Source: Candidatus Cloacimonadota bacterium (GTDB lineage Bacteria > Cloacimonadota > Cloacimonadia > JGIOTU-2). From it: DNA of 49,055 nt. Numbering within the stretch: the stretch's first letter is position 1; each line of letters opens with the position of its first letter. The notes beneath the pieces were generated by a model. It did not search any database and was not told the origin of the DNA. It saw nothing but the letters and a program-made list of their open reading frames with translations. Both the position numbers and the translations under genes were made by a program. Shown here in pieces: positions 30,983 to 42,301 of the stretch. Location of the stretch: contig JAUWPE010000002.1 in NCBI GenBank assembly GCA_030611765.1, forward strand, positions 1 through 49,055, given 5' to 3'.

Positions 30983-31074
30983 ACGAGTGAGAAAATTCAG
31001 ATACTCACGTTTGAGCGTCAAGAAAATCACGTTACAAAAATAATGAAGAAAAGATTGATGAAGAGAGATTACGC

Positions 31075-31650
31075 ATGAGCAGAAAAGAAATTGAGAAAAT
31101 ATTAGTTGAATCCGGTGCATTTCTTGAAGGACATTTCAAGCTGACATCCGGCAAGCATAGTAAATATTATATCGAAAAGATAAAACTCATCCAGCAACCC
31201 GAAGATGTAGTAAAGATCGGTAAAGCTTTTGCTATGAAATGTGCTCATCTTGATTTTGATGTCGTGGTAAGTCCCGCACTTGGAGCGATAGTGCTCGGTT
31301 ATGAAGTTGCAAAACAGATGGGCAAACGGTTCGTATTCACTCAAAGAAAAGATGATAAAATGTCAATACGTAGCGGGTTCGATCTGCAGCCGCATGAAAA
31401 AGTACTCATAATCGAAGACGTGACAACTACCGGCGGAAGTGTTTTGGAAGTAATTGATTGCGTAAAAGAGCGGAATGCAGATATTGTCGGAGTAGGACTC
31501 ATCGTGGATAGAAGCGGTGGAACTATCGATTTTGGCGTGCCGGTTTTTCCTTTATTGACATTGAAGATCACAGCGTATGAACCAGATGAGTGCCCTTTGT
31601 GTAAAGAAAACATTCCCATCACAAAACCCGGATCGAGTGATAAAAAATGA
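31075..31650 (+). CDS. pyrE: Orotate phosphoribosyltransferase
   Basis: PRPP-binding loop VLIIEDVTTTGGS. Size and N-terminal FLEGHFKLTSGKHS pattern fit the family. Confidence 0.9.
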   Translation: MSRKEIEKILVESGAFLEGHFKLTSGKHSKYYIEKIKLIQQPEDVVKIGKAFAMKCAHLDFDVVVSPALGAIVLGYEVAKQMGKRFVFTQRKDDKMSIRSGFDLQPHEKVLIIEDVTTTGGSVLEVIDCVKERNADIVGVGLIVDRSGGTIDFGVPVFPLLTLKITAYEPDECPLCKENIPITKPGSSDKK

Positions 31651-31694
31651 TCATAGAGAATCGTTTAGTAAAATATTTTCACCACAGAGAACAT

Positions 31695-31774
31695 CCGTCT
31701 TCATTACATTTCAGTCTTCACTTCGTTACGCCCAGACAGGACGCCGAGACAAGCAGAGCCCACAGAGAGAAGAC
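31695..31774 (+). repeat. Dispersed intergenic repeat, copy A
   Basis: ccgtcttcattacatttcagtcttcacttcgttacgcccagacaggacgccgagacaagcagagcccacagagagaagac. Related copies lie at 34670-34700 (-), 39682-39784 and 42226-42285. Confidence 0.7.
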
Positions 31775-31922
31775 AAATGATTTTTTTATCAAAAATATTA
31801 ACCATATGCTTTTTAACCCGTTTACCCTGTGTAATCTCTTATATCTTTTATTACACATGGGTGAAATTCGCAGGATTTTTAACTGGGTAAGCGTGTGGGA
31901 TAAAACAAGGAGTTTATAAAGT

Positions 31923-33614
31923 ATGAAAATTGTTGAATGTGTTCCGAATTTTAGTGAAGGACGCGATGAAGCGATAATCAAACAGATTACTGACCGGATC
32001 GAGGAAGTTGACGGGGTAGTGCTGCTCGATGTTGACCCAGGCAAGGACACAAACAGAACAGTTGTGACTTTCGTGGGAACTCCCGAAGGCGTTGAGGAAG
32101 CAGCATTCAGAGCGATCAAGAAAGCATCAGAGCTAATTGATATGCGGCAACATTCCGGCGCTCATCCGCGTATGGGAGCTACCGACGTCTGCCCTTTTGT
32201 GCCTGTCGCTGGTGTCACAACCGAGGACTGTATTGAGATATCTAAAACGCTTGGTAAAAGAGTTGGTGAAGAATTAAAAATACCTGTATATCTTTATGAG
32301 CATTCTGCATCTACAATCGAGAGACAGAACCTTGCGAATATACGGCAGGGAGAATTTGAAGGACTGGCAAAGAAACTGGAAGATCCACACTGGAAACCTG
32401 ATTTTGGTCCTGCAAAGATACATGAAAATGCTGGCGCCCTGGTAACCGGCGCGCGTGAATTCCTTATCGCTTACAACATAGATCTGAACACAAGAGATAC
32501 ACAAAAAGCAAAAGAGATTGCGCTTACTATTCGCGAAAAGGGTCGCCGAATGCGTAATGAAAATTATCAACCGGTGACGAATGATGAAGGAAATCTCGTT
32601 GTTATTCCCGGAATTTTTGATAATGTGAAGGCGATCGGCTGGTATATTCCGGAATATGGACAGGCACAAATTTCAATAAATCTTACTAATTACAAAATCG
32701 CACCTCCACATCTTGTGTTTGATAAAGTAAGAGAGATCGCACTTGAAAAGGGTTTGGTCGTGACAGGCAGCGAACTTGTTGGCTTGATCCCTCTTGAAGC
32801 GATGCTGAATGCAGGAAGGTATTTTCTGGAGAAGCAGGGTTCATCTTATGCGGTTTCTGATAAAGAATTGGTTCATACTGCGATTGTTTCTCTTGGACTG
32901 AATGACATCTCCAAGTTCGATCCGGATGAAAAGATAATTGAGTACAAAATCGCAAAACATAACCTCCTTGCTAATCTTACAGTTAAAGACTTTATAGATG
33001 AGCTTGCATCAGATTCACCTGCTCCGGGTGGAGGAAGTGTTGCAGCATTATGCGGAAGTCTGGCTGCAGGTTTGACTGCAATGGTCGGCAATCTCACAAC
33101 TGGAAAGTACAAATTTAAAAATTCTGAAGAAAGAAGTGCTTACCAGGAGAATGAAGCTCGCATGCTCACAATGGCGTGGGAAGCGCAGCAAATGAAGAAA
33201 CAACTGCTCGAAGCGATCGATAAAGATACAGAAGCATTTAATGGTTACATGGCTGCAATGAAACTTCCCAAGAAAAAAGAAGAGGATAAGAAAAAAAGGT
33301 CAATAGCAATTCAAAAAGCGATAAAAAATGCTACTCTGGTTCCATTACACACAATGAAGCTGTGCTGGGAAGTCATCGTACTAACTGAGACTGCTGCAAA
33401 ATATGGAAATCAAAATGCGGTATCCGATGCTGGAGTTTCTGCGATTACAGCACTAACCGGTGTCAAAGGTGCGTATCTTAATGTGCGTATCAATCTACCC
33501 GGAGTGAAAGACGAAGAATTCAAAAAGAATATTCTTGAACAGGCAGAAAATATCCTTAAACAATCGATAGAACTCGCTGAAAAAGTTGAAAAAAACGTTT
33601 TAGAGAAATTATAA
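31923..33614 (+). CDS. ftcD: Bifunctional glutamate formimidoyltransferase / formimidoyltetrahydrofolate cyclodeaminase
   Basis: N-terminal MKIVECVPNFSEGRD and HPRMGATDV are transferase hallmarks. The C-terminal helical cyclodeaminase domain carries SDSPAPGGGSVAA. Confidence 0.9.
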   Translation: MKIVECVPNFSEGRDEAIIKQITDRIEEVDGVVLLDVDPGKDTNRTVVTFVGTPEGVEEAAFRAIKKASELIDMRQHSGAHPRMGATDVCPFVPVAGVTTEDCIEISKTLGKRVGEELKIPVYLYEHSASTIERQNLANIRQGEFEGLAKKLEDPHWKPDFGPAKIHENAGALVTGAREFLIAYNIDLNTRDTQKAKEIALTIREKGRRMRNENYQPVTNDEGNLVVIPGIFDNVKAIGWYIPEYGQAQISINLTNYKIAPPHLVFDKVREIALEKGLVVTGSELVGLIPLEAMLNAGRYFLEKQGSSYAVSDKELVHTAIVSLGLNDISKFDPDEKIIEYKIAKHNLLANLTVKDFIDELASDSPAPGGGSVAALCGSLAAGLTAMVGNLTTGKYKFKNSEERSAYQENEARMLTMAWEAQQMKKQLLEAIDKDTEAFNGYMAAMKLPKKKEEDKKKRSIAIQKAIKNATLVPLHTMKLCWEVIVLTETAAKYGNQNAVSDAGVSAITALTGVKGAYLNVRINLPGVKDEEFKKNILEQAENILKQSIELAEKVEKNVLEKL

Positions 33615-33634
33615 GCTATAACATGAAAAGTTTT

Positions 33635-33674
33635 GATGCGCATGAATGAATGATTTGTGTGCATCTTTTTATTT
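33635..33674 (+). terminator. Probable rho-independent terminator after ftcD
   Basis: gatgcgca ... tgtgcatc stem (one G-U pair) followed by tttttattt. It abuts the nfo start codon. Confidence 0.45.
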
Positions 33675-34517
33675 ATGAAATATATTGGAGTCCATGTCAG
33701 CATAAGCGGAGGAGTGCAGAATGCTCCGCTCAATGCTCATGAAATTGGAGCAAATGCCTTTGCTATGTTCACAAAGAATCAAAGGCAGTGGCACGCAAAA
33801 TCGCTCGAAGATAAGGATATTTCAGCTTTCAAGAAAAATTGTGAAAATTTAGGATTTTCATCAAAGTACATTCTGCCACATGACAGCTACCTGATAAATC
33901 TTGGCCATCCTGAAAAAGATGCCCTTGAAAAATCCCGTGCAGCATTTCTCGATGAAGTAGAACGATGTGAATTATTGGGATTGGACTACCTGAACTTTCA
34001 TCCCGGCAGCACACTGAATAGGATCACCAGTGAAAATTGTATTGACATCATCGCAGAGTCTCTAAGTTTAACAATTGAGAAAACCCACAATCTGACTCTT
34101 GTACTGGAAACAACAGCAGGAATGGGATCGAGCGTGGGAGCTTCTTTCAAAGAACTTGCACATATTATTGAAAAAGTAAAAAATAAATCCAGAATCGGCG
34201 TGTGCATTGACACCTGTCATATATTCGCAGCAGGATACGATATCAGCACAAAAAAGAAATATGAAGAAACCATGAATAGGTTCGAGAAAGAAATTGGTAT
34301 TCAGTATCTCAAAGGTGTTCATCTGAACGATTCAAAGAAAAAATGTGGAAGCAGAATAGACAGGCATGCACCTATCGGCAAAGGTTTCATAGGCATTGGC
34401 GGATTCAGTTATATTATGAATGATGAAAGATTCGATAATAAACCTCTCATTCTGGAAACGCCGGATAGAGAAAACTGGAAAAACGAAATAAAACTTCTCT
34501 ATGACCTTATTGAATAG
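33675..34517 (+). CDS. nfo: Endonuclease IV
   Basis: MKYIGVHVSISGG start, as in characterised Nfo. Also LNFHPGS, CIDTCHIFAAGYD and HLNDSK metal-ligand motifs. Confidence 0.9.
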   Translation: MKYIGVHVSISGGVQNAPLNAHEIGANAFAMFTKNQRQWHAKSLEDKDISAFKKNCENLGFSSKYILPHDSYLINLGHPEKDALEKSRAAFLDEVERCELLGLDYLNFHPGSTLNRITSENCIDIIAESLSLTIEKTHNLTLVLETTAGMGSSVGASFKELAHIIEKVKNKSRIGVCIDTCHIFAAGYDISTKKKYEETMNRFEKEIGIQYLKGVHLNDSKKKCGSRIDRHAPIGKGFIGIGGFSYIMNDERFDNKPLILETPDRENWKNEIKLLYDLIE

Positions 34518-34530
34518 AGAAGGAGGTTCA

Positions 34531-35239
34531 ATGAATAAAAAAATTGCAGTTTTAGGGGCCGGACTTGTCGGTCATGCGATCGTGAAAGATCTGGCAAAAG
34601 ACAAATTAGCCGCAAAATTACACAAAAATTATTTTTGTTACTTTTTATATTAATAGATAATATTTTTTTCGCCTGCCACGGCGTAACGTAGTGAAGACTG
34701 GTATTTTCGTGGCTCATCTATGATTCCTTACAGACGGACTTCGCACACTGCTGAAAACGACACATATTCCCTTTATGAAAGAAAAAACCTTGCGATATCA
34801 GGGACATGCCCAGACCATGCAGATGCTGCGGGACAATAATTTCTTAAGCTATAAAGAAATCGATGTGAACGGGAAAAAGATCAAGCCGATAGAACTGACA
34901 TCTAAACTCCTTTTCAAGAACTGGCAGTTTGATGAAGGAGAAGAGGATATTACGTTTTTGAGAGTCATCATAGATGGTAAAAAACACGATTCGAATTATT
35001 CATTTATCTATGATCTGCTTGATTCTTATGATAAAAAAACAGGCACTTCATCCATGGCGAGAACGACCGGCTATACCTGCACAGCAGTTGCAAGATTACT
35101 TCTGAAGGGAAAAATAATCCAAAAAGGTATCTGCCCTCCGGAATATATAGGTATGGATGAAAATAATTACAACTTTATAATTGATGAATTGGTAAAAAGA
35201 AATATCATTTTACACGAAGTGGTGAAAGAGATTGTATAG
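34531..35239 (+). pseudogene. Saccharopine-dehydrogenase-family gene with internal deletion
   Basis: The N-terminal Rossmann start MNKKIAVLGAGLVGHAIVKDLAKD (34531 onward) stops at 34653. The C-terminal domain ORF 34775-35239 contains SSMARTTGYTCTAVARLLLKG. The middle of the gene is missing and the junction carries a repeat copy (34670-34700). Confidence 0.6.
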
Positions 35240-35248
35240 GAGGTCAAA

Positions 35249-35467
35249 ATGACTGCATTTAATGTTTTGTTATTAGTTTTCGGTATCGTACTTTTATTGT
35301 ATTGTTTCTATGCTGTCACCGCAGGTAGGTTACGCATAAAGCACCCAAGAGAGTGGAAAGAAAATCCCAAAGAATTCAAAAGAGAGAAATTGCCGTTTAT
35401 TTACTATTTCATGATCCTGGTATGTTTTATCATCGGTATGGCTTTGATAGTGATAGCACTATTATAG
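35249..35467 (+). CDS. Small 2-TM membrane protein, unknown function
   Basis: 72 aa with two hydrophobic helices. GGAGG lies upstream of the ATG. Confidence 0.35.
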   Translation: MTAFNVLLLVFGIVLLLYCFYAVTAGRLRIKHPREWKENPKEFKREKLPFIYYFMILVCFIIGMALIVIALL

Positions 35468-35683
35468 GAAGATACAAACATGAAAGATAAGATTTTACTT
35501 GGTTTGAAGTTACGTAAGATTCAACTCGCTGAATTGAAGGTTGTAAAATTGTGACTTGAATGTTACTAATTGAGAAAACAGTTGACATTAATCTCAGGGT
35601 CGCAAAAACTCGCATCGCAAAACAGTGAGTTGGCTGGGTTGTTAAATAGCGAGTCGTAAAACAACGACCTGAAAAGAGGTTTG

Positions 35684-36814
35684 ATGGAAAATCCTTTTAA
35701 ATACGGAGAAGTCGTTTCGGGAGAAAATTTCTGTAACAGGAAAAAAGAATTAAAAGAAATCAATAGAGCAATTGTCAACGGATATTCTTTTTGGATGTAT
35801 TCTCCTCGCAGGTTCGGTAAATCATCATTGATTTTGAAAGCGTTTGATGGGCTAGATGACAAGAATATTATTACGATCTATTTCGATATGTATAAGCTCG
35901 AAACATTGGATGATTTTGCCAGAGAATATTCTGCTTTATTGGCAAAAGAGCTTTTCGATTGGAAAATTGGGATTAAGAAATTAACCCAGAAAATCGGAAA
36001 ATTATTTCACAATCTTTATCCAAAAATTTCATTTGATTCTTATGGAAATCCGTCAGTCTCTCTCGAAATTCAGAAAATCGAAGATCATACCGATATTGAA
36101 ACTATTTTAAATATTCCTGATAAAATTGCTGAAAAAAACGATATTAAAATATGTATTGCTTTTGACGAATTTCAAGAAATTCAAAGAATAAAACCTTTTT
36201 TAATTAATTGGATGCGTTCTCTTTTCCAATTTCATAAGAAAGTGTCTTACATTTTTTTGGGAAGCAAACAATCTCTTATGGAATATATTTTTACGGATAT
36301 GAATTCTCCATTTTATGAGTTTGGTTTCAAAATGCCAATTAATCCGATTTCAAATGATGATCTTACATCTTTTATAAAAAAACAGTTTAGGAAAACAAAA
36401 TTGAATATTTGTAATGAAACTATATCTGATATTTTGAACAGATCAAGGAGTCATCCTCATTTCACACAATATTTTGCGGCTGTGGTCTGGGAAATGATTT
36501 TGGAAGGATTTGATGACAAAAACCCTGATTTTAATACATTGTGGATGAAAAGAATCATCGATAGCCAGTCCTTTATTTTCCAGAATATTTATGACCAATT
36601 AAATTTAAATCAAAGAAAAACTCTAATTGCGATCTCAAATCTAAAAGATGAAAAACTGTTTTCAGGTGAATATCGGAAAAGATTTGATTTGCCTGAAACA
36701 TCTTCATTAACATCTACAATAAACAGTTTAATAAAAAAGAATTTGATCCAAAAAGTTAGTGGGGGTTATGAGATTATTAATCCTGTTTTTGAGGAATGGA
36801 TTAGGAATTTGTGA
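35684..36814 (+). CDS. P-loop NTPase of the AAA+/ATPase_2 (PF01637-like) type with winged-helix-like C-terminus
   Basis: Walker A SPRRFGKS (35801-35824) and Walker B ICIAFDEFQE (DE at 36164-36169). The N-terminal NPFKYGEVVSGENFCNRKKEL is typical of this family. AGAGG precedes the ATG. The track start 35681 is a TTG one codon earlier. Confidence 0.75.
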   Translation: MENPFKYGEVVSGENFCNRKKELKEINRAIVNGYSFWMYSPRRFGKSSLILKAFDGLDDKNIITIYFDMYKLETLDDFAREYSALLAKELFDWKIGIKKLTQKIGKLFHNLYPKISFDSYGNPSVSLEIQKIEDHTDIETILNIPDKIAEKNDIKICIAFDEFQEIQRIKPFLINWMRSLFQFHKKVSYIFLGSKQSLMEYIFTDMNSPFYEFGFKMPINPISNDDLTSFIKKQFRKTKLNICNETISDILNRSRSHPHFTQYFAAVVWEMILEGFDDKNPDFNTLWMKRIIDSQSFIFQNIYDQLNLNQRKTLIAISNLKDEKLFSGEYRKRFDLPETSSLTSTINSLIKKNLIQKVSGGYEIINPVFEEWIRNL

Positions 36815-36828
36815 TTTAAGGTAAAATT

Positions 36829-39204
36829 ATGAAACAGTCCCCATATTCAATTTATATCGATAAACGTCCAATAAGGATTGCGTTTTTAATCAATCCAGAA
36901 AAGGATACAATTGTTCAAATTCAGAGAGTTATTGAATACAATTTGTATAAATGGGGTGGTAGATATAATCCGATTATATTTACGGATGGAAAAACCATTA
37001 AAAACAATTGGTGGAAATTGTTAAATGACGTTGATCCTGATATAATTATTTCTTTTATAGAATTAGACGAAAAAATATTAAGAAAAATTGATTTATTTCT
37101 TTCACCAATATCTTTAGAAATTATCATTCCTTTACATCACAACATTCATTCAACATATGATGGATTATCTATTTATCCAACTTTACGGAATATTAATAAA
37201 TTATTTAGTTCAACACTTGCTCTTTTTGATTTTGATGAAAATTTAGATTCGATTATTAAGAAATTTATAAATATTAATTTCGGTTCATATCCGATTAAAC
37301 TTAAAGATATTCTTGATTTAAATGATAAAAACAAAAAGATATTACAAATAAATAATAAAGATGATTTAATTTCTTCTTTAAAAGACCTATGTGAATATAA
37401 AAATTTTACATATCCTATTCAGATATGTTCAATTCCACACAAGTTTAGGGAAGTTGAAAATAGTGGAGTCGAAAGACCATTTACAGTAATTATCGGAGAT
37501 TCACCAGAAGATATTGTATATAATTGGAATATTATTCATTCCTACTCAAACTGGCAAAAAAAATATTTTAATAATATCTGGCTTCCAATTGATTTAGCAA
37601 ACGATATAGAGTTTGGAGAATCGTTAAAAAAGTGGTTAAAAAAAATCTGTAGCAATAGTGATAGATTTAATCATCGGATAAAATTCATTAGTTTTAGTCT
37701 TTCAAAAAAAGAACTGAAAGTTATATCAGATAGGCTTACAAAAAATACACTGTCTAATATCACAGAAACTTTTAATGAAATTAAAACTCCAGAATTTCAA
37801 CAAAATAGCAATTTTGTTGAAATTTCAAATGAAATGGATTCTTATCACATAACAGGCGATCAAAATCGAATAAATTTAAATCCGCCAGATGTTGAAAAAA
37901 GATTGATTTCAAATGAATTGTGGGTTGCTGACATATATATGCATTTTCGTCCTGAACGTTTTCCTAATATTCAAGGAGGAACTTTATGGTGGAAGCTACC
38001 GAAACATAATAGATTAGCATATGATTTATTTAGTTCTACATCAAGAATATGTTCAAATGGATTTCCTGCAGTTTTTCTATCAAGAGAAAATCCAAAATTG
38101 AGTATTAATTTATTATCGGATTCAGAAATATTTAGGATACTATTAACAAAAGAAAACAGAGCAATTCTAAAATCTGATCCAAGAAATTGTTTGGAGCAAA
38201 ATGTTTTTGCTTTTGCTAACCCATCAGATAAGGGAAAATATATGTCTGGTTTTGTAAATCTTTTTATAGATATATTTAATGCAAAACAGTTTTTAGAGAA
38301 AAAATATTGGCGTCATATGTTCGATATTTTATCGAATGCAAATCCCAAAAAGGATAATAGAAAAAGAGAAACAATATATAAAACTTTGGATAAAAAAAAT
38401 GAGAATTTTCTAAAGAGTGAGAAAGGCTTAACTTGGTTAATAGATTGCGTGCTAAAATTATCTAGAGACATTGTTAATTTGAATAAAGAAGTAGATTTTT
38501 TTATTTTTAAGGAAGAAGCTAAAAAAGAATATGAAAATTTCAATTCAATTAACGAGAATAAGCGACTTGGTTATTTTAATAAATATTTTATTGAACGTAT
38601 GTCAGAGACTTTGAATGAGTTAATTGAAAAAAAAATAATTCAAATTGGAATACGACCTCAATGTCCTATTTGTGGTTTGAGCCGATGGTTTCATATTGAT
38701 GAAATTCATCAGAATATTGTATGCAAAGGTTGTCGTAATGAGTTTGATGTCAGGGCAGAAGAGAAATGGTTTTATAGATTAAATAGTCTAATTCGACAGG
38801 GGCATTCTCAACACGGTTTAACACCAGTTATTTTAGTGTTAGGTCAGTTGCTTGAAGAAAGTAAAACCTCATTTATATATGATACAACTTTAAATATTTT
38901 TAAAAAAGGTGTTGCTGAAGAATTTACCGACTTGGATATTGTGTGTATTCAGGATGGTAAATTTATTATTGGTGAGATTAAACAAAAAAATACAGGTTTT
39001 GAAAAAAAAGATTTTAAAACTTTAAAGGAAGTAGCAGAAAGAATAAAACCTGATGTGATAATTTTTTCCTCATTAGAAAAAAAATGTAATGAAGGAATTA
39101 TACAGGAAATTAAAAATTTACAAAAAGATTTAAAATCACTTAAAATTGAAGTTAAATGGTATCCATTAAGAGATAATGTATTTGAATCAACACCATTTCT
39201 ATAA
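36829..39204 (+). CDS. Large (791 aa) uncharacterised protein with Zn-ribbon and C-terminal PD-(D/E)xK-like nuclease motif
   Basis: Long uninterrupted ORF 14 nt after the NTPase gene. CPICG-x16-CKGC (38662-38733). TDLDIVCIQDGKFIIGEIKQK (38929-38982) fits the D...ExK core. I recognise no family for the N-terminal 600 aa. Confidence 0.6.
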   Translation: MKQSPYSIYIDKRPIRIAFLINPEKDTIVQIQRVIEYNLYKWGGRYNPIIFTDGKTIKNNWWKLLNDVDPDIIISFIELDEKILRKIDLFLSPISLEIIIPLHHNIHSTYDGLSIYPTLRNINKLFSSTLALFDFDENLDSIIKKFININFGSYPIKLKDILDLNDKNKKILQINNKDDLISSLKDLCEYKNFTYPIQICSIPHKFREVENSGVERPFTVIIGDSPEDIVYNWNIIHSYSNWQKKYFNNIWLPIDLANDIEFGESLKKWLKKICSNSDRFNHRIKFISFSLSKKELKVISDRLTKNTLSNITETFNEIKTPEFQQNSNFVEISNEMDSYHITGDQNRINLNPPDVEKRLISNELWVADIYMHFRPERFPNIQGGTLWWKLPKHNRLAYDLFSSTSRICSNGFPAVFLSRENPKLSINLLSDSEIFRILLTKENRAILKSDPRNCLEQNVFAFANPSDKGKYMSGFVNLFIDIFNAKQFLEKKYWRHMFDILSNANPKKDNRKRETIYKTLDKKNENFLKSEKGLTWLIDCVLKLSRDIVNLNKEVDFFIFKEEAKKEYENFNSINENKRLGYFNKYFIERMSETLNELIEKKIIQIGIRPQCPICGLSRWFHIDEIHQNIVCKGCRNEFDVRAEEKWFYRLNSLIRQGHSQHGLTPVILVLGQLLEESKTSFIYDTTLNIFKKGVAEEFTDLDIVCIQDGKFIIGEIKQKNTGFEKKDFKTLKEVAERIKPDVIIFSSLEKKCNEGIIQEIKNLQKDLKSLKIEVKWYPLRDNVFESTPFL

Positions 39205-39220: not shown

Positions 39221-39632
39221 ATGAACACATTAAAATTAATCGATAGTCTGGAATGGCTCCGCTCGGACATCATCGGACGCAATAAATTATTCCAAACGCC
39301 TTACGGTGAAAAATCGCTTGTTTATGCAGATTATACAGCCAGTGGAAGATGTTTATATTCGATAGAGAATTATATGCTTCATCTGATGCAGTATTACGCA
39401 AATACTCACACAGAAGATGATTTTACCGGAAAAACAATGACAGAAATTCTTCATAAAGCAGAAAAAAATAATTAAGAAAATCGTGAATGCTGGAGAAACT
39501 GGAAAAGTTATTTTTACCGAATCGGGAACAACCGGCGGAATTACCAGATTACAGCAGATTCTTAGTGTGTATTGGCCTCCTGCCATGAAAAAGCGCATCA
39601 ATGAATTTATAGCAGACCCCGAATGCTTTTAG
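39221..39632 (+). pseudogene. Frameshifted, truncated class-V aminotransferase (cysteine-desulfurase-like) gene remnant
   Basis: LVYADYTASGR...YANTHTE (39221-39475) continues in another frame after an A7 run at about 39463 as IVNAGETGKVIFTESGTTGGI, then stops at 39632. Only about the first quarter of a normal gene is present. Confidence 0.6.
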
Positions 39633-39681: not shown

Positions 39682-39784
39682 CCGTCTTCATTTCATTATG
39701 GCCAGACGAGCAAGAGAAAATTTTCTCTGTGCTCTCTGCTTGCCAAGGCGTAGTGCAACGAAGCCTGAAGCGCAGCGAAGACGG
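39682..39784. repeat. Dispersed intergenic repeat, copy C, with 8-bp terminal inverted repeats CCGTCTTC/GAAGACGG
   Basis: The reverse complement of the right half aligns with copy A: ccgtcttcgctgcgcttcaggcttcgttgcactacgcc...aagcagagagcacagagaaaa. Confidence 0.65.
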
Positions 39785-39814
39785 ATGCTTTTATTTATTT
39801 TTGTGGTTAAGAGA

Positions 39815-42019
39815 TTACATGATTCCGAGGAATTGCTGAATTGCAGGTGAGAATGCAACAATCAAACCTGCAAATACAATACTTACCATACTCATCAATT
39901 TAATAAGAATATTAATAGAAGGACCTGCAGTATCTTTGAAAGGATCTCCGACAGTATCACCAACTACACATGCCTTATGAATTTCTGAGCCCTTACCACC
40001 GTAGTGTCCGATCTCGACATATTTTTTTGCATTATCCCAAGCACCACCTGAGTTGTTCATCATAACTGCAAGAGTAAAACCGGTTGTCAGTCCACCAACG
40101 AGGAGTCCCATCACGCCGGCAACACCAAGAATTAGACCCACAACAATAGGAGTAATAATGCCGAGAAGCGCTGGGGAGACCATTTCTTTCTGAGCTCCTT
40201 TAGTTGAGATGTGCACGCATTTTGCATATTCCGGTTCGGCTGTACCTTCCAGAATACCGGGAATTTCTTTAAACTGACGGCGAACTTCAGCAACCATATC
40301 ACCCGCCGCACGACCAACTGCTTTGAGCGTCATCGCCGCAAAGACAAAGGTAACCATTGCGCCAATAAAGATGCCGACAAGCGTTTTGGGATTCATAAGT
40401 GTAATATTATAATGTTCAACAAAATTGGCAATAGAGGCAGTACTCAGATCAACACCTGCGATCATTGTTTCTCCTGCGAGTTTCAAGCCGGTTCGAACTT
40501 CTTCAAGGTAAGCTGCCAGAAGCGCCATTACAGTAAGCGCAGCAGAACCGATTGCAAACCCTTTTCCTGTTGCAGCCGTTGTATTTCCAACAGAGTCGAG
40601 CGCATCGGTACGTTCACGAACTTCTTTGGGAAGTTTGGACATCTCAGCATTCCCACCGGCATTGTCTGCAATAGGACCAAAGGCATCCATCGCAAGAGTG
40701 ACACCGAGTGTAGAAAGCATACCTACTGCACCAAAACCAATACCATACAATCCAACTTCCGGAATAAGGAAACCTTTACTCACCGCAAAGGCAGAAAGAA
40801 TAGCGATGGCAATAATGATAACGGGAGCACCTGTAGATCTCATTCCAACTGCAAGCCCGTCTATTATAACCGTTGCAGGTCCGTATTCCGCTTGTTTTGC
40901 TATTCCCTTTGTTGATTTAAAACTGTAAGAAGTAGCACGTTCTGTGAACACACCAATCAAAATACCCGCAAGCAATCCTATGACCAATGCAAAAAAGACG
41001 CCTAATGAATATTCCGGCGGAAGCATCCAACGAGTGACGAAGAACGCAACAATTGCAATGAGAATTGAACTGCCATACACACCTTTATTCAGTGCGAACA
41101 TGAGATCTTTTGTGGTGGCATCCTCTTTTGTAGAAACCATAAAAATACCAATAATTGAGAGAAATGCACCGATACCGGCAAGGATCATTGGGGCTGTAAC
41201 AAATCGGATCGCAAGGTCCTGCAAAGCTGGTGCTCTTGCTGCTATTTGTGTGAACGCAGCCATACCGAGTGCGGCAGTTGCGAGGATCGAGCAGGTATAG
41301 GATTCGTAAAGATCAGCGCCCATGCCTGCTACATCACCCACATTATCACCCACGTTATCTGCGATAGTTGCAGGATTTCGCGGGTCGTCTTCAGGAATGC
41401 CGGCTTCTAATTTACCAACGAGGTCAGCTCCCACATCGGCAGCTTTGGTATAAATACCGCCACCAAGACGTGCAAAAAGCGCCTGCGTTGAAGCACCCAT
41501 TCCAAAACTAAGCATTATCACAGTTATTGTATGAAGGTCCATTTTGAACGCATTCAGTACAAAGAACCAGGCAGAAATATAAATAAGAGCAAGTCCCACA
41601 ACTACGAGTCCCATCACACCACCGGCACGAAATGCAATGGTCAGCCCTTTATTAAGACTCTGCCGGGCGCCCTGAGCGGTTCGGTTAGAAGCGAGTGTAG
41701 CTGTGTTCATACCGATCCAGCCAGCCAGTCCGCTGAAAAATCCACCGGTTAAAAATGCCCATGGAATAAGCGGATGAAGGACTTTCAGCACCCAAGCCAT
41801 GATGTTAAAAACTATAAAGGCAATAATGAAAAATATTCCCACTCCTTTATACTGCTGTTTAAGATAAGCGAATGCTCCTTCACGCACATACTTAGCGATT
41901 TTCTGCATCTTCTCATTGCCGGGATCTTCCTTCTTTACGCTTCTATAAAGAATAAAAGCAAAAATCAGTGCGGTAACAGCACCGGCAGGTGCAACGATCC
42001 ATAACAAAGGGATGTTCAT
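39815..42019 (-). CDS. hppA: Membrane-integral pyrophosphatase (K+-dependent type)
   Basis: 734 aa, about 16 TM, with [18 protein letters not shown] and DNVGDNVGD. The GNTTAA (Ala, not Lys) signature marks K+-dependent H+/Na+-PPases. Confidence 0.95.
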
Positions 42020-42128
42020 GAAGAATCCTCCTGAAATTAATGTTGATTTTGGGTCAGATTTTTAAGCCCTTTTCGGTTTGTCAAGGATTGGGAGGTTGAT
42101 AAATTATTTGAAGAATTAAAAGCAAGTT

Positions 42129-42301
42129 TGTAACGCAAGACTCCGATCTTGCGTAAATCCTCAACATCGGAATGTTGAGTTACGTAAAACAAGACTCCGA
42201 TCTTGTTCGAACAGTGTGCTCAACATCAGTCTTTGTTTCACTTCAGTCTTCGCTACGCTACGCCCAGACAGGACGCTTCGACAGGTCGGAATGTTGAGTT
42301 A
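42129..42301 (+). repeat. Two tandem hairpin-repeat units; the second carries a nested 60-nt copy of the dispersed repeat
   Basis: Unit 1 (42129-42182) and unit 2 (42183-42301) share caagactccgatcttg and ctcaacat...cggaatgttgagttac. In unit 2 the hairpin loop is split by 42226-42285. Confidence 0.7.

Follow-up and report, generated by a model that had tools for sequence, protein, structure and literature searches.

Two accessory genes of a Candidatus Cloacimonadota bacterium, probably made neighbours by cassette exchange, and a predicted stand-alone defence nuclease

Two co-oriented genes separated by an intergenic spacer of 14 nt raise the question of whether they work as one system. Such a pair, genes 1 and 2 (+ strand, Table 1), lies on the 49,055 nt stretch of contig JAUWPE010000002.1 from a Candidatus Cloacimonadota bacterium (GCA_030611765.1), the whole of which is called the window here. 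Gene 1 encodes a P-loop ATPase and gene 2 a 791-amino acid (aa) protein ending in a zinc ribbon and a nuclease-like domain, and the original prediction, whose gene coordinates were confirmed, saw in them an NTPase and a nuclease forming a candidate defence system. Our analysis of the two gene families points to another answer, namely that the locus probably holds two separate accessory genes made neighbours by cassette exchange, gene 2 being predicted to encode a stand-alone, gated defence nuclease. A claim of a novel two-gene system is not supported.

Gene 2 is a member of a large family that has no name. With a word-indexed search 126 homologs were retrieved, and an exhaustive profile search covering 1.84 billion cluster representatives (clusters at 50% identity) returned 4,226 representatives of the family at E<=1e-3, 2,642 at <=1e-10 and 818 at <=1e-30. 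Of the best 150 among these 4,226, nearly all were 790-850 aa long and matched end to end, and the full-length architecture was kept in every fetched locus. Among species genomes the family is rare and patchily spread (170 of 185,579, ~0.1%), and a scan of 2.9 million viral contigs turned up no relative. Pfam, NCBIfam, PADLOC, PHROGs and PDB sequences were searched with the single protein, with 51 family members and with profiles, and yielded no family and only generic zinc-ribbon matches; 33 of the 51 members weakly matched Zn_ribbon_IS1595 and other zinc-ribbon Pfam models (E >= 0.0065). No model of PADLOC-DB v2.0.0 was matched consistently by the 51 members, the best match being that of one member to LmuA/DUF4297 (1.9e-5). 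In the alignment of these members, with identities down to 24%, C612, C615, C632, C635, D703 and K718 were invariant (51/51), and E716 was found in 50 members and replaced by Asp in the remaining one. The four invariant cysteines thus bear out the CxxC zinc ribbon proposed earlier. Invariant residues of the N-terminal region include W42, G43, G44, R45, D71, W233, W365, D368, S466, G469 and G474. The ratio of non-synonymous to synonymous substitution rates (dN/dS) of gene 2 was 0.22-0.30, and the gene is therefore kept by purifying selection.

The AlphaFold2 model of the gene 2 protein reached a predicted local distance difference test score (pLDDT) of 89.8 and a predicted template modelling score (pTM) of 0.86, and a separate model of residues 596-791 had a pLDDT of 89.1. 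The latter contains, in model numbering, helix 70-82, strands 87-96, 103-113 and 116-123, helix 131-144 and strand 148-153, giving an alpha-beta-beta-beta-alpha-beta core in which strand beta2 carries D703 and strand beta3 carries E716-x-K718. When this model was compared with the PDB by Foldseek, it matched Can2 (8bao, E 2.8e-5), EcoT38I (7e8r, 6.4e-5) and VC1899 (1xmx, 4.9e-3) with a probability of 1.00, and further matches were T. brockii Can2 and Cdn1 (8q3y and 9u49 among the PDB entries matched; probability 0.96-1.0). With the full gene 2 model, VC1899, Cdn1 and Can2 ranked first, and several structure matches in BFVD carried the label 'restriction endonuclease'. The matches to Can2, EcoT38I, VC1899 and Cdn1 confirm the PD-(D/E)xK fold that had been suspected near D701-K718, and the C-terminus is, judging from the models, very probably a PD-(D/E)xK nuclease.

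The first 600 residues of the gene 2 protein, for which no family had been recognised, gave no significant Foldseek match in PDB or BFVD and none by sequence. In the model, residues 1-335 form two Rossmann-like alpha/beta modules, followed by a beta-rich part (336-466) and a helical bundle (467-600). A GT-B or periplasmic-binding-protein-like fold was considered and rejected, the matches to glycosyltransferases, LacI-type proteins, shikimate dehydrogenase and acyl-CoA synthetases having E > 0.05 and low probability. A likeness of residues 45-114 (window 36961-37170) to CWB2 of the C. difficile S-layer was also discarded as non-significant (profile E 0.038); this weak resemblance runs through a 'PI(i/v)xxDGK...DxDIIxx' strand-loop pattern. 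A Walker A-like motif was present in just one of the 51 family members.

Among 139 immediate neighbour genes of the family there was no single recurring partner, the most frequent neighbours being N6_Mtase/HsdM (5), an aminotransferase (5, Cloacimonadota only), YgjP (4), phage integrase (4) and Schlafen/AlbA_2 (4). Type I or Type ISP restriction-modification (R-M) genes were found within 10 kb in 24 of 79 nuclease loci, as compared to one of the 83 ATPase loci that served as control and none of the 28 such control loci of at least 8 kb. The partner that does recur around the family is R-M of Type I, ISP or IIG. Embedding of the nuclease gene in R-M operons, or its appending to them, was seen in at least six phyla. 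Five Poribacteria loci share the arrangement hsdR-(Fic or ATPase_2)-hsdS-p153-X-hsdM on one strand, where X is the nuclease gene, and in other Poribacteria a Type ISP enzyme and a small open reading frame (ORF) precede it. The order hsdM-hsdS-hsdR-YgjP-X, with the nuclease gene co-oriented, was found in Saccharibacteria, Parcubacteria, Bacteroidales and Gammaproteobacteria. Other nuclease loci adjoin integrases, prophage lysis genes, NACHT/nSTAND NTPases, HEPN or Schlafen/AlbA_2 genes, or sit between serine recombinases.

In the Poribacteria loci L004, L005, L032, L035 and L040 the nuclease variant between hsdS and hsdM is longer (905-920 aa) and is always preceded by a conserved ORF of ~153 aa without a Pfam match, and the slot between hsdR and hsdS holds Fic in L004, L032 and L040, a distant ATPase_2/nSTAND-like gene in L005, and both in L032.

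A gene nested in an R-M, BREX or Hma operon frequently serves defence itself (bioRxiv 10.1101/2024.01.29.577857), TgvAB being one precedent of an embedded defence gene (PMC11411939). In the sense of such 'guilt by embedding', members of the family occur within multi-gene defence operons; the window copy does not. Taken together, the proximity to R-M genes and the integrase, NACHT, HEPN and Schlafen neighbours support the defence-type character that the original prediction gave to the locus, as far as the 791-aa protein is concerned and not in its two-gene form, and we consider it reasonably likely that the nuclease family functions in defence.

We propose that the conserved N-terminal region would serve as a sensor or specificity module, holding the zinc-ribbon and PD-(D/E)xK nuclease part inactive until a non-self cue is met. 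Since most loci lack a methyltransferase, the gene 2 protein does not appear to be a constitutive sequence-specific restriction enzyme, and its N-terminus would therefore have to limit cutting to non-host DNA or await a signal. The cue is most likely one of two kinds: a DNA feature absent from the host, by analogy with Type IV modification-dependent restriction, or a signal of infection or of anti-restriction, by analogy with a guard of R-M. Once activated, the nuclease would cut nucleic acid by means of D703, E716, K718 and a metal ion. As a bolder and tentative extension, the 791-aa family may be a widespread single-protein immune nuclease with a new sensor type that has co-evolved with Type I/ISP R-M as a second layer, a proposal that would cover more than 4,000 clusters (50% identity) from at least 10 phyla. 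This second layer would cut modified DNA escaping R-M, or fire once anti-restriction proteins disable R-M.

A more specific possibility is that gene 2 guards R-M by abortive infection, the latent protein firing when anti-restriction proteins disable Type I/ISP enzymes and then degrading host and phage nucleic acid. Such a guard is in keeping with more than 20 loci where hsdS and hsdM flank the gene or where, co-oriented, it comes right behind hsdR-YgjP or a Type ISP enzyme. A mechanistic precedent is set by the R-M-linked guards PrrC, PARIS and Ronin (bioRxiv 10.1101/2023.04.06.535777), PrrC being almost exclusively embedded in Type I R-M (bioRxiv 10.1101/2024.01.29.577857). Moreover, in structure the nuclease domain comes closest to the ligand-gated nucleases of the Can2/Card1 family (PMC12825302). 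However, most members, including the window copy, have no R-M within 10 kb, which makes an obligatory physical tie to Hsd proteins unlikely. PrrC, AriAB and RonA share neither sequence nor fold with gene 2, and RonA of the Ronin system was dismissed as a relative, being an unrelated 61-aa membrane peptide. The likeness to PrrC, PARIS and Ronin is one of logic only, and the guard is a sub-case of the defence-nuclease explanation and not an alternative to it; as the particular mode of action of gene 2 we regard it as rather unlikely.

A rival explanation is that the Cloacimonadota ATPase, as a sensor or motor, and the 791-aa nuclease effector form a lineage-restricted pair in one operon. Gene 1 starts at ATG 35684, since all close homologs are 376 aa long; the ORF listing had given TTG 35681. 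Its product scored above the gathering threshold against PF01637 ATPase_2 (E 4.4e-12, 46.7 bits, cut-off 33.2 bits) and has a Walker A motif, SPRRFGKS (GKS, K46), and a Walker B motif, ICIAFDEF, at residues 156-163, both invariant in 21 homologs, which agrees with the earlier assignment to PF01637-like P-loop NTPases. The Walker A lysine formerly listed as K47 is real; that number counts from the TTG and becomes K46 from the ATG. The profile of the homologs matched PDB entry 2qen, a 'Walker-type ATPase', at 7e-6 over residues 113-368. A winged-helix-like tail, also proposed earlier, is probable, the C-terminus showing a weak match to SarA/Rot-type helix-turn-helix proteins at residues 306-359 (E 0.0076) and the 2qen match reaching as far as residue 368. 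In PADLOC, gene 1 gave only a weak N-terminal match to PDC-S01 (~2e-5, residues 16-84).

The ATPase family has at least 1,692 matches. Gene 1 is 85-90% identical to its counterparts at the ftcD...hppA locus of L084 and L089 and has a dN/dS of 0.05-0.12. Homologs from Cloacimonadota, Cytophagales, Bacteroidales and Aminicenantes (P0121-P0240) are 52-91% identical and share ~85 invariant residues, a degree of sequence conservation that suggests recent horizontal spread under strong constraint.

A hidden Markov model of the ATPase was run against all ORFs of 83 gene 2-carrying loci (the other counts of nuclease loci given here are on 79), sampled from Cloacimonadota, Bacteroidota, several phyla of the candidate phyla radiation (CPR), Poribacteria, Acidobacteriota, Nitrospirota, Armatimonadota, Gemmatimonadota, Bdellovibrionota, Proteobacteria and Firmicutes. 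The ATPase lay beside the nuclease gene in four places only, namely the window, L001/L010, L009 and L011. In L009 it has decayed to a 110-aa remnant next to an intact nuclease gene, and in L011 it is 1.25 kb away from the nuclease gene, with a DUF1016/YhcG nuclease gene intervening. It was missing from about 75 of the 79 nuclease loci, in more than 10 phyla, among them the sister Cloacimonadota L012 and L013 at the same pur locus. The nuclease was in turn missing from about 80 of 83 ATPase loci; among 85 ATPase loci fetched (83 non-redundant), gene 2 followed the ATPase only in L089. Downstream of the ATPase, the other loci had a 390-aa 4Fe-4S (Fer4) protein, a 656-aa coiled-coil protein with HNH_5, a 1037-aa ankyrin protein or opposite-strand genes. 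In Aminicenantes (L087/L088, 7272-10385) the ATPase homolog is followed by this ankyrin-repeat protein, which matches PADLOC PDC-M72A at 1e-153, and then by a 412-aa protein.

The identities of the two proteins do not co-vary either. Between the window and L089 the ATPases are 89.9% and the nucleases 56.6% identical, the corresponding values between the window and L001 are 69.3% and 67.8%, and the ATPases of L001 and L085 are 87.7% identical with different cargo downstream. The L089 nuclease clusters with those of L012 and L013, both without the ATPase. The ATPase follows the chromosomal locus, with nuclease alleles coming and going on its downstream side. Hence the proposal of one NTPase and nuclease system fails on the absence of co-variation, the occurrence of each family mostly without the other and the discordant divergences, and the expected co-occurrence of the 791-aa protein with the NTPase is confined to adjacency in a few Cloacimonadota loci (the window, L001, L011, L009 and L089). 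Gene 1 is an ordinary locus-resident PF01637 ATPase and not an obligate partner of gene 2, and it is highly likely that the pair is not an obligate system.

The history of the locus would account for the adjacency. The window and L084 align collinearly over 31000-36789 and 39789-42208, with a nucleotide identity of 84-89%, the blastn collinearity breaking at 36789 and returning at 39789. The gene order in L084 is ftcD, nfo, saccharopine dehydrogenase, a 72-aa ORF, ATPase and hppA, with the Fe-S gene before hppA; L084 and L090-L092 alike have the ATPase, then Fer4, then hppA. In the window, the segment between these breakpoints is replaced (Table 1), and window 36727/36841-39611 is 71-77% identical to the pur-locus arrangement of other Cloacimonadota, purL-purQ-[variable]-aminotransferase-purH. 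Relative to L089, the flanks are 95-100% identical and the nuclease gene 54-80% identical at the nucleotide level, a pattern that marks a swap of alleles between strains that are very closely related. The 3' flank of gene 1 is a swap site for the Fe-S gene or either of two nuclease alleles that are 57% identical. ATPase 3' remnants accompany the nuclease gene in L009 and L011. The adjacency of ATPase and nuclease is best explained by recombination in the form of cassette exchange, with the resident conserved ATPase gene as the left anchor.

In the Cloacimonadota pur loci L001, L011, L012, L013, L009 and L085, the stretch from purQ to the aminotransferase gene is a hotspot of variation. Its contents are the nuclease alone, ATPase and nuclease, ATPase, DUF1016 and nuclease, or ATPase, the 656-aa protein and HNH. 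The 656-aa coiled-coil protein of this slot has a weak ZorA-like match (1.7e-5), and its partner is an HNH_5 protein.

Several observations weigh against separate genes and a stand-alone defence nuclease. A lineage-specific functional link is conceivable given that the co-oriented ATPase and nuclease genes are 14-22 nt apart in the window, L001 and L089, and given that each of two divergent nuclease alleles sits right behind an ATPase paralog, at two different chromosomal loci. In addition, two Poribacteria loci (L005 and L032) have a distant ATPase_2 gene and the nuclease gene together in one R-M operon. Concerning the defence role, many of the R-M-linked loci are from Poribacteria and not phylogenetically independent, and ~70% of loci have no R-M gene within 10 kb. 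In L012 and L013 the nuclease gene is tightly packed into a purine-biosynthesis operon; only 3-15 nt separate it from purQ, and it shares 4 nt with the aminotransferase gene. Finally, we infer the sensor and do not recognise it by homology, because the N-terminal 600 aa have no assigned fold.

The points on spacing, alleles and Poribacteria operons would be expected of a lineage-restricted pair, as would the ATPase 3' remnants that immediately precede the nuclease gene in L009 and L011, and the varied cargo of the ATPase (the nuclease, the 656-aa protein with HNH, the ankyrin protein) could be taken for interchangeable effectors of a single sensor. However, the last model was rejected as the main one, given the Fe-S cargo, the opposite-strand genes and the lack of R-M enrichment. 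The pair as a whole is contradicted by the many loci with one gene and not the other, by a cargo that includes a plain Fe-S protein, by the decayed ATPase of L009 and the split pair of L011, by ATPase loci without R-M or defence enrichment, and by PADLOC system models matching neither protein. We therefore consider such a pair improbable, and cassette exchange between two accessory genes remains the preferred reading.

A selfish mobile-element gene, such as a transposase or a homing-type nuclease, would fit the variable location of gene 2, often near integrases or transposases, and the weak matches to the IS1595 transposase zinc-ribbon model in 33 of 51 members; PD-(D/E)xK domains are known in some transposition proteins. 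However, these zinc-ribbon matches are generic, no terminal inverted repeats or target duplications were found around the gene, each locus has one copy, and the Cloacimonadota gene fits without a seam behind purQ and ahead of the aminotransferase gene, its neighbours being 3-15 nt away or overlapping. As recombination at flanking homologous genes accounts for the movement, and relatives were absent from the viral contigs scanned, a selfish gene is very unlikely. The remaining explanation, a housekeeping repair, recombination or metabolic gene working with the purine operon or the aminotransferase in Cloacimonadota, fits the tight packing in L012, L013 and L001 (purL-purQ-X-aminotransferase-purH) and the purifying selection on gene 2, but is scarcely credible for a gene that is present in so few species genomes, is absent from the L085 pur locus (which has the 656-aa protein and HNH instead) and from the syntenic hppA locus of L084 and L090-L092, has a GC content 7-10 points below its flanks, and is linked to the aminotransferase in Cloacimonadota only.

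Composition and flanks also mark the cassette as accessory DNA, as the original prediction had rightly judged. The AT-richness noted by eye was borne out by a GC content of 29.7% in gene 1 and 26.6% in gene 2 compared to 37.6% in the remaining window, and by a GC content at third codon positions (GC3) of 17% in gene 2 compared to 35-37% in ftcD, nfo and hppA; the GC content of the nuclease gene is 7-10 points under its flanks in all Cloacimonadota loci. Gene remnants do lie on both sides. Upstream, the saccharopine dehydrogenase gene, intact (381 aa) in L084, has lost its N-terminal half in the window by a deletion of ~555 nt at 34605-34723, as seen by comparing L084 4254-4809 with window 34517-34775. 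Downstream is the stub of a class-V aminotransferase gene, 79% identical by BLASTP to residues 23-104 of the 600-aa L001 protein, the match being extended by tblastn to residue 152. This remnant came in along with gene 2, the aminotransferase gene being the one that follows the nuclease at the pur locus of other Cloacimonadota. The ~590-aa aminotransferase of these bacteria (L001 10328-12130 and homologs) matches the PADLOC model of the cysteine desulfurase DndA at 5.8e-13 (5/5 loci), probably by generic NifS/IscS-type similarity.

The repeat copies said to flank the cassette were not recovered: a repeat search found no terminal repeats around it and nothing beyond short chance matches of AT-rich sequence and a single hairpin of 36 nt. 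The hairpin, an inverted repeat with 89% complementarity at 39703-39738, between the aminotransferase remnant and the hppA 3' end, may be the hppA terminator. The TTGACA reported near 35583 is present as a hexamer at 35582-35587 and lacks a credible -10 element, and promoter-like sites were not enriched in the scan (25 seen, 28.9 +/- 4.9 expected).

Table 1. Positions in the window of the two genes, the parts of gene 2 and the flanking features
Feature	Position	Strand	Description
Truncated saccharopine dehydrogenase	34775..35239	+	C-terminal 154 aa only; Pfam Sacchrp_dh_C positions 119-264 of 265
Gene 1	35684..36814	+	376-aa PF01637 (ATPase_2) P-loop ATPase
Replaced segment	36790..39788	.	Gene 2 and aminotransferase stub where relatives hold the 390-aa 4Fe-4S gene
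Gene 2	36829..39204	+	791-aa protein, large unnamed family
Gene 2 N-terminal region, residues 1-600	36829..38628	+	Secondary structure from model
Gene 2 zinc ribbon, residues 604-650	38638..38778	+	C612, C615, C632, C635; beta-hairpins in models
Gene 2 PD-(D/E)xK domain (predicted), residues 651-791	38779..39201	+	Candidate catalytic D703, E716, K718
Candidate catalytic codon D703	38935-38937		
Candidate catalytic codon E716	38974-38976		
Candidate catalytic codon K718	38980-38982		
Class-V aminotransferase 5' remnant	39221..39611	+	~150 codons with frameshift, of a ~590-aa protein

If its defence role is confirmed, the gene 2 family would add a large unannotated family to the prokaryotic immune repertoire, and its 600-aa module without an assigned fold would be a candidate new sensor. 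The family is especially common in the poorly studied Poribacteria, CPR/Patescibacteria, Cloacimonadota and Acidobacteriota. Its clear link to R-M makes it a good lead and not a surprise, such candidates being numerous. The locus also carries a caution on method, as tight spacing and a plausible NTPase and nuclease logic hinted at a system where comparative genomics points to cassette exchange.

Among known proteins, gene 1 is by score, motifs and profile match a member of the PF01637 ATPase_2 family, of which 2qen is a solved example. This family is without an established function, gene 1 belongs to no named defence system, and a literature search on PF01637/DUF234 returned nothing relevant. 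The original prediction had found no match to a named system, and this holds for both proteins: neither gene 1 nor gene 2, the latter tested with its 51 homologs, has the component families of Septu, Gabija, PARIS, Hachiman or AVAST-type systems in the PADLOC models. With PrrC, TgvAB/GmrSD-like genes and the HEC/PDC candidates of PADLOC, the gene 2 family shares the nesting in, or appending to, variable slots of Type I R-M operons, but it differs from them in domain content, and ~70% of the family is not next to R-M.

The best structural matches of the gene 2 C-terminal domain are Can2, Card1 and Cdn1 (DUF1887), ancillary nucleases of type III CRISPR, together with VC1899. Can2, Card1 and Cdn1 combine a CARF domain with a PD-(D/E)xK nuclease (PMC12825302), and gene 2 resembles Can2/Card1 in placing a putative N-terminal sensor before a C-terminal nuclease of this type. 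In contrast to them, with their N-terminal CARF domain for binding cyclic oligoadenylate, none of the 51 gene 2 members has a CARF or DUF1887 Pfam match, a helical bundle and a zinc ribbon precede the nuclease in place of the CARF Rossmann domain, and the protein is twice as long, with a sequence identity of 12-18%; in the Foldseek alignments to Can2, no more than 178 columns are covered with the C-terminal query of 196 residues. Cas families were found neither among the top 25 Pfam/PADLOC families of the 139 neighbours nor among the recurrent neighbour clusters. Having no CARF domain and no CRISPR link, the gene 2 protein is not a member of the Can2/Card1 family, although its C-terminal domain would act in the manner of the Can2/Card1 nuclease domain or of a restriction endonuclease.

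The PD-(D/E)xK restriction endonucleases, such as EcoT38I (7e8r) and the Mrr-like domain of the Type ISP enzyme LlaBIII (4xqk), have the same catalytic fold, with D...(D/E)xK on beta2/beta3, and the gene 2 family likewise keeps company with R-M systems. Mrr and MspJI-type Type IV enzymes consist of an N-terminal recognition part and a C-terminal nuclease, a layout like that of gene 2, which further resembles Type IV restriction in having a predicted nuclease domain without a cognate methyltransferase. By contrast, gene 2 falls into none of the Pfam families of restriction endonucleases, one or two of the 51 members giving weak NERD or PDDEXK_10 matches, and no cognate methyltransferase gene stands beside gene 2 in the window or beside its relatives at most loci. 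Its N-terminal 600 aa matched none of the known reader or specificity domains in the searches made. In conclusion, gene 2 joins a C-terminal domain of a known superfamily to an N-terminal region, the putative sensor, that is new.

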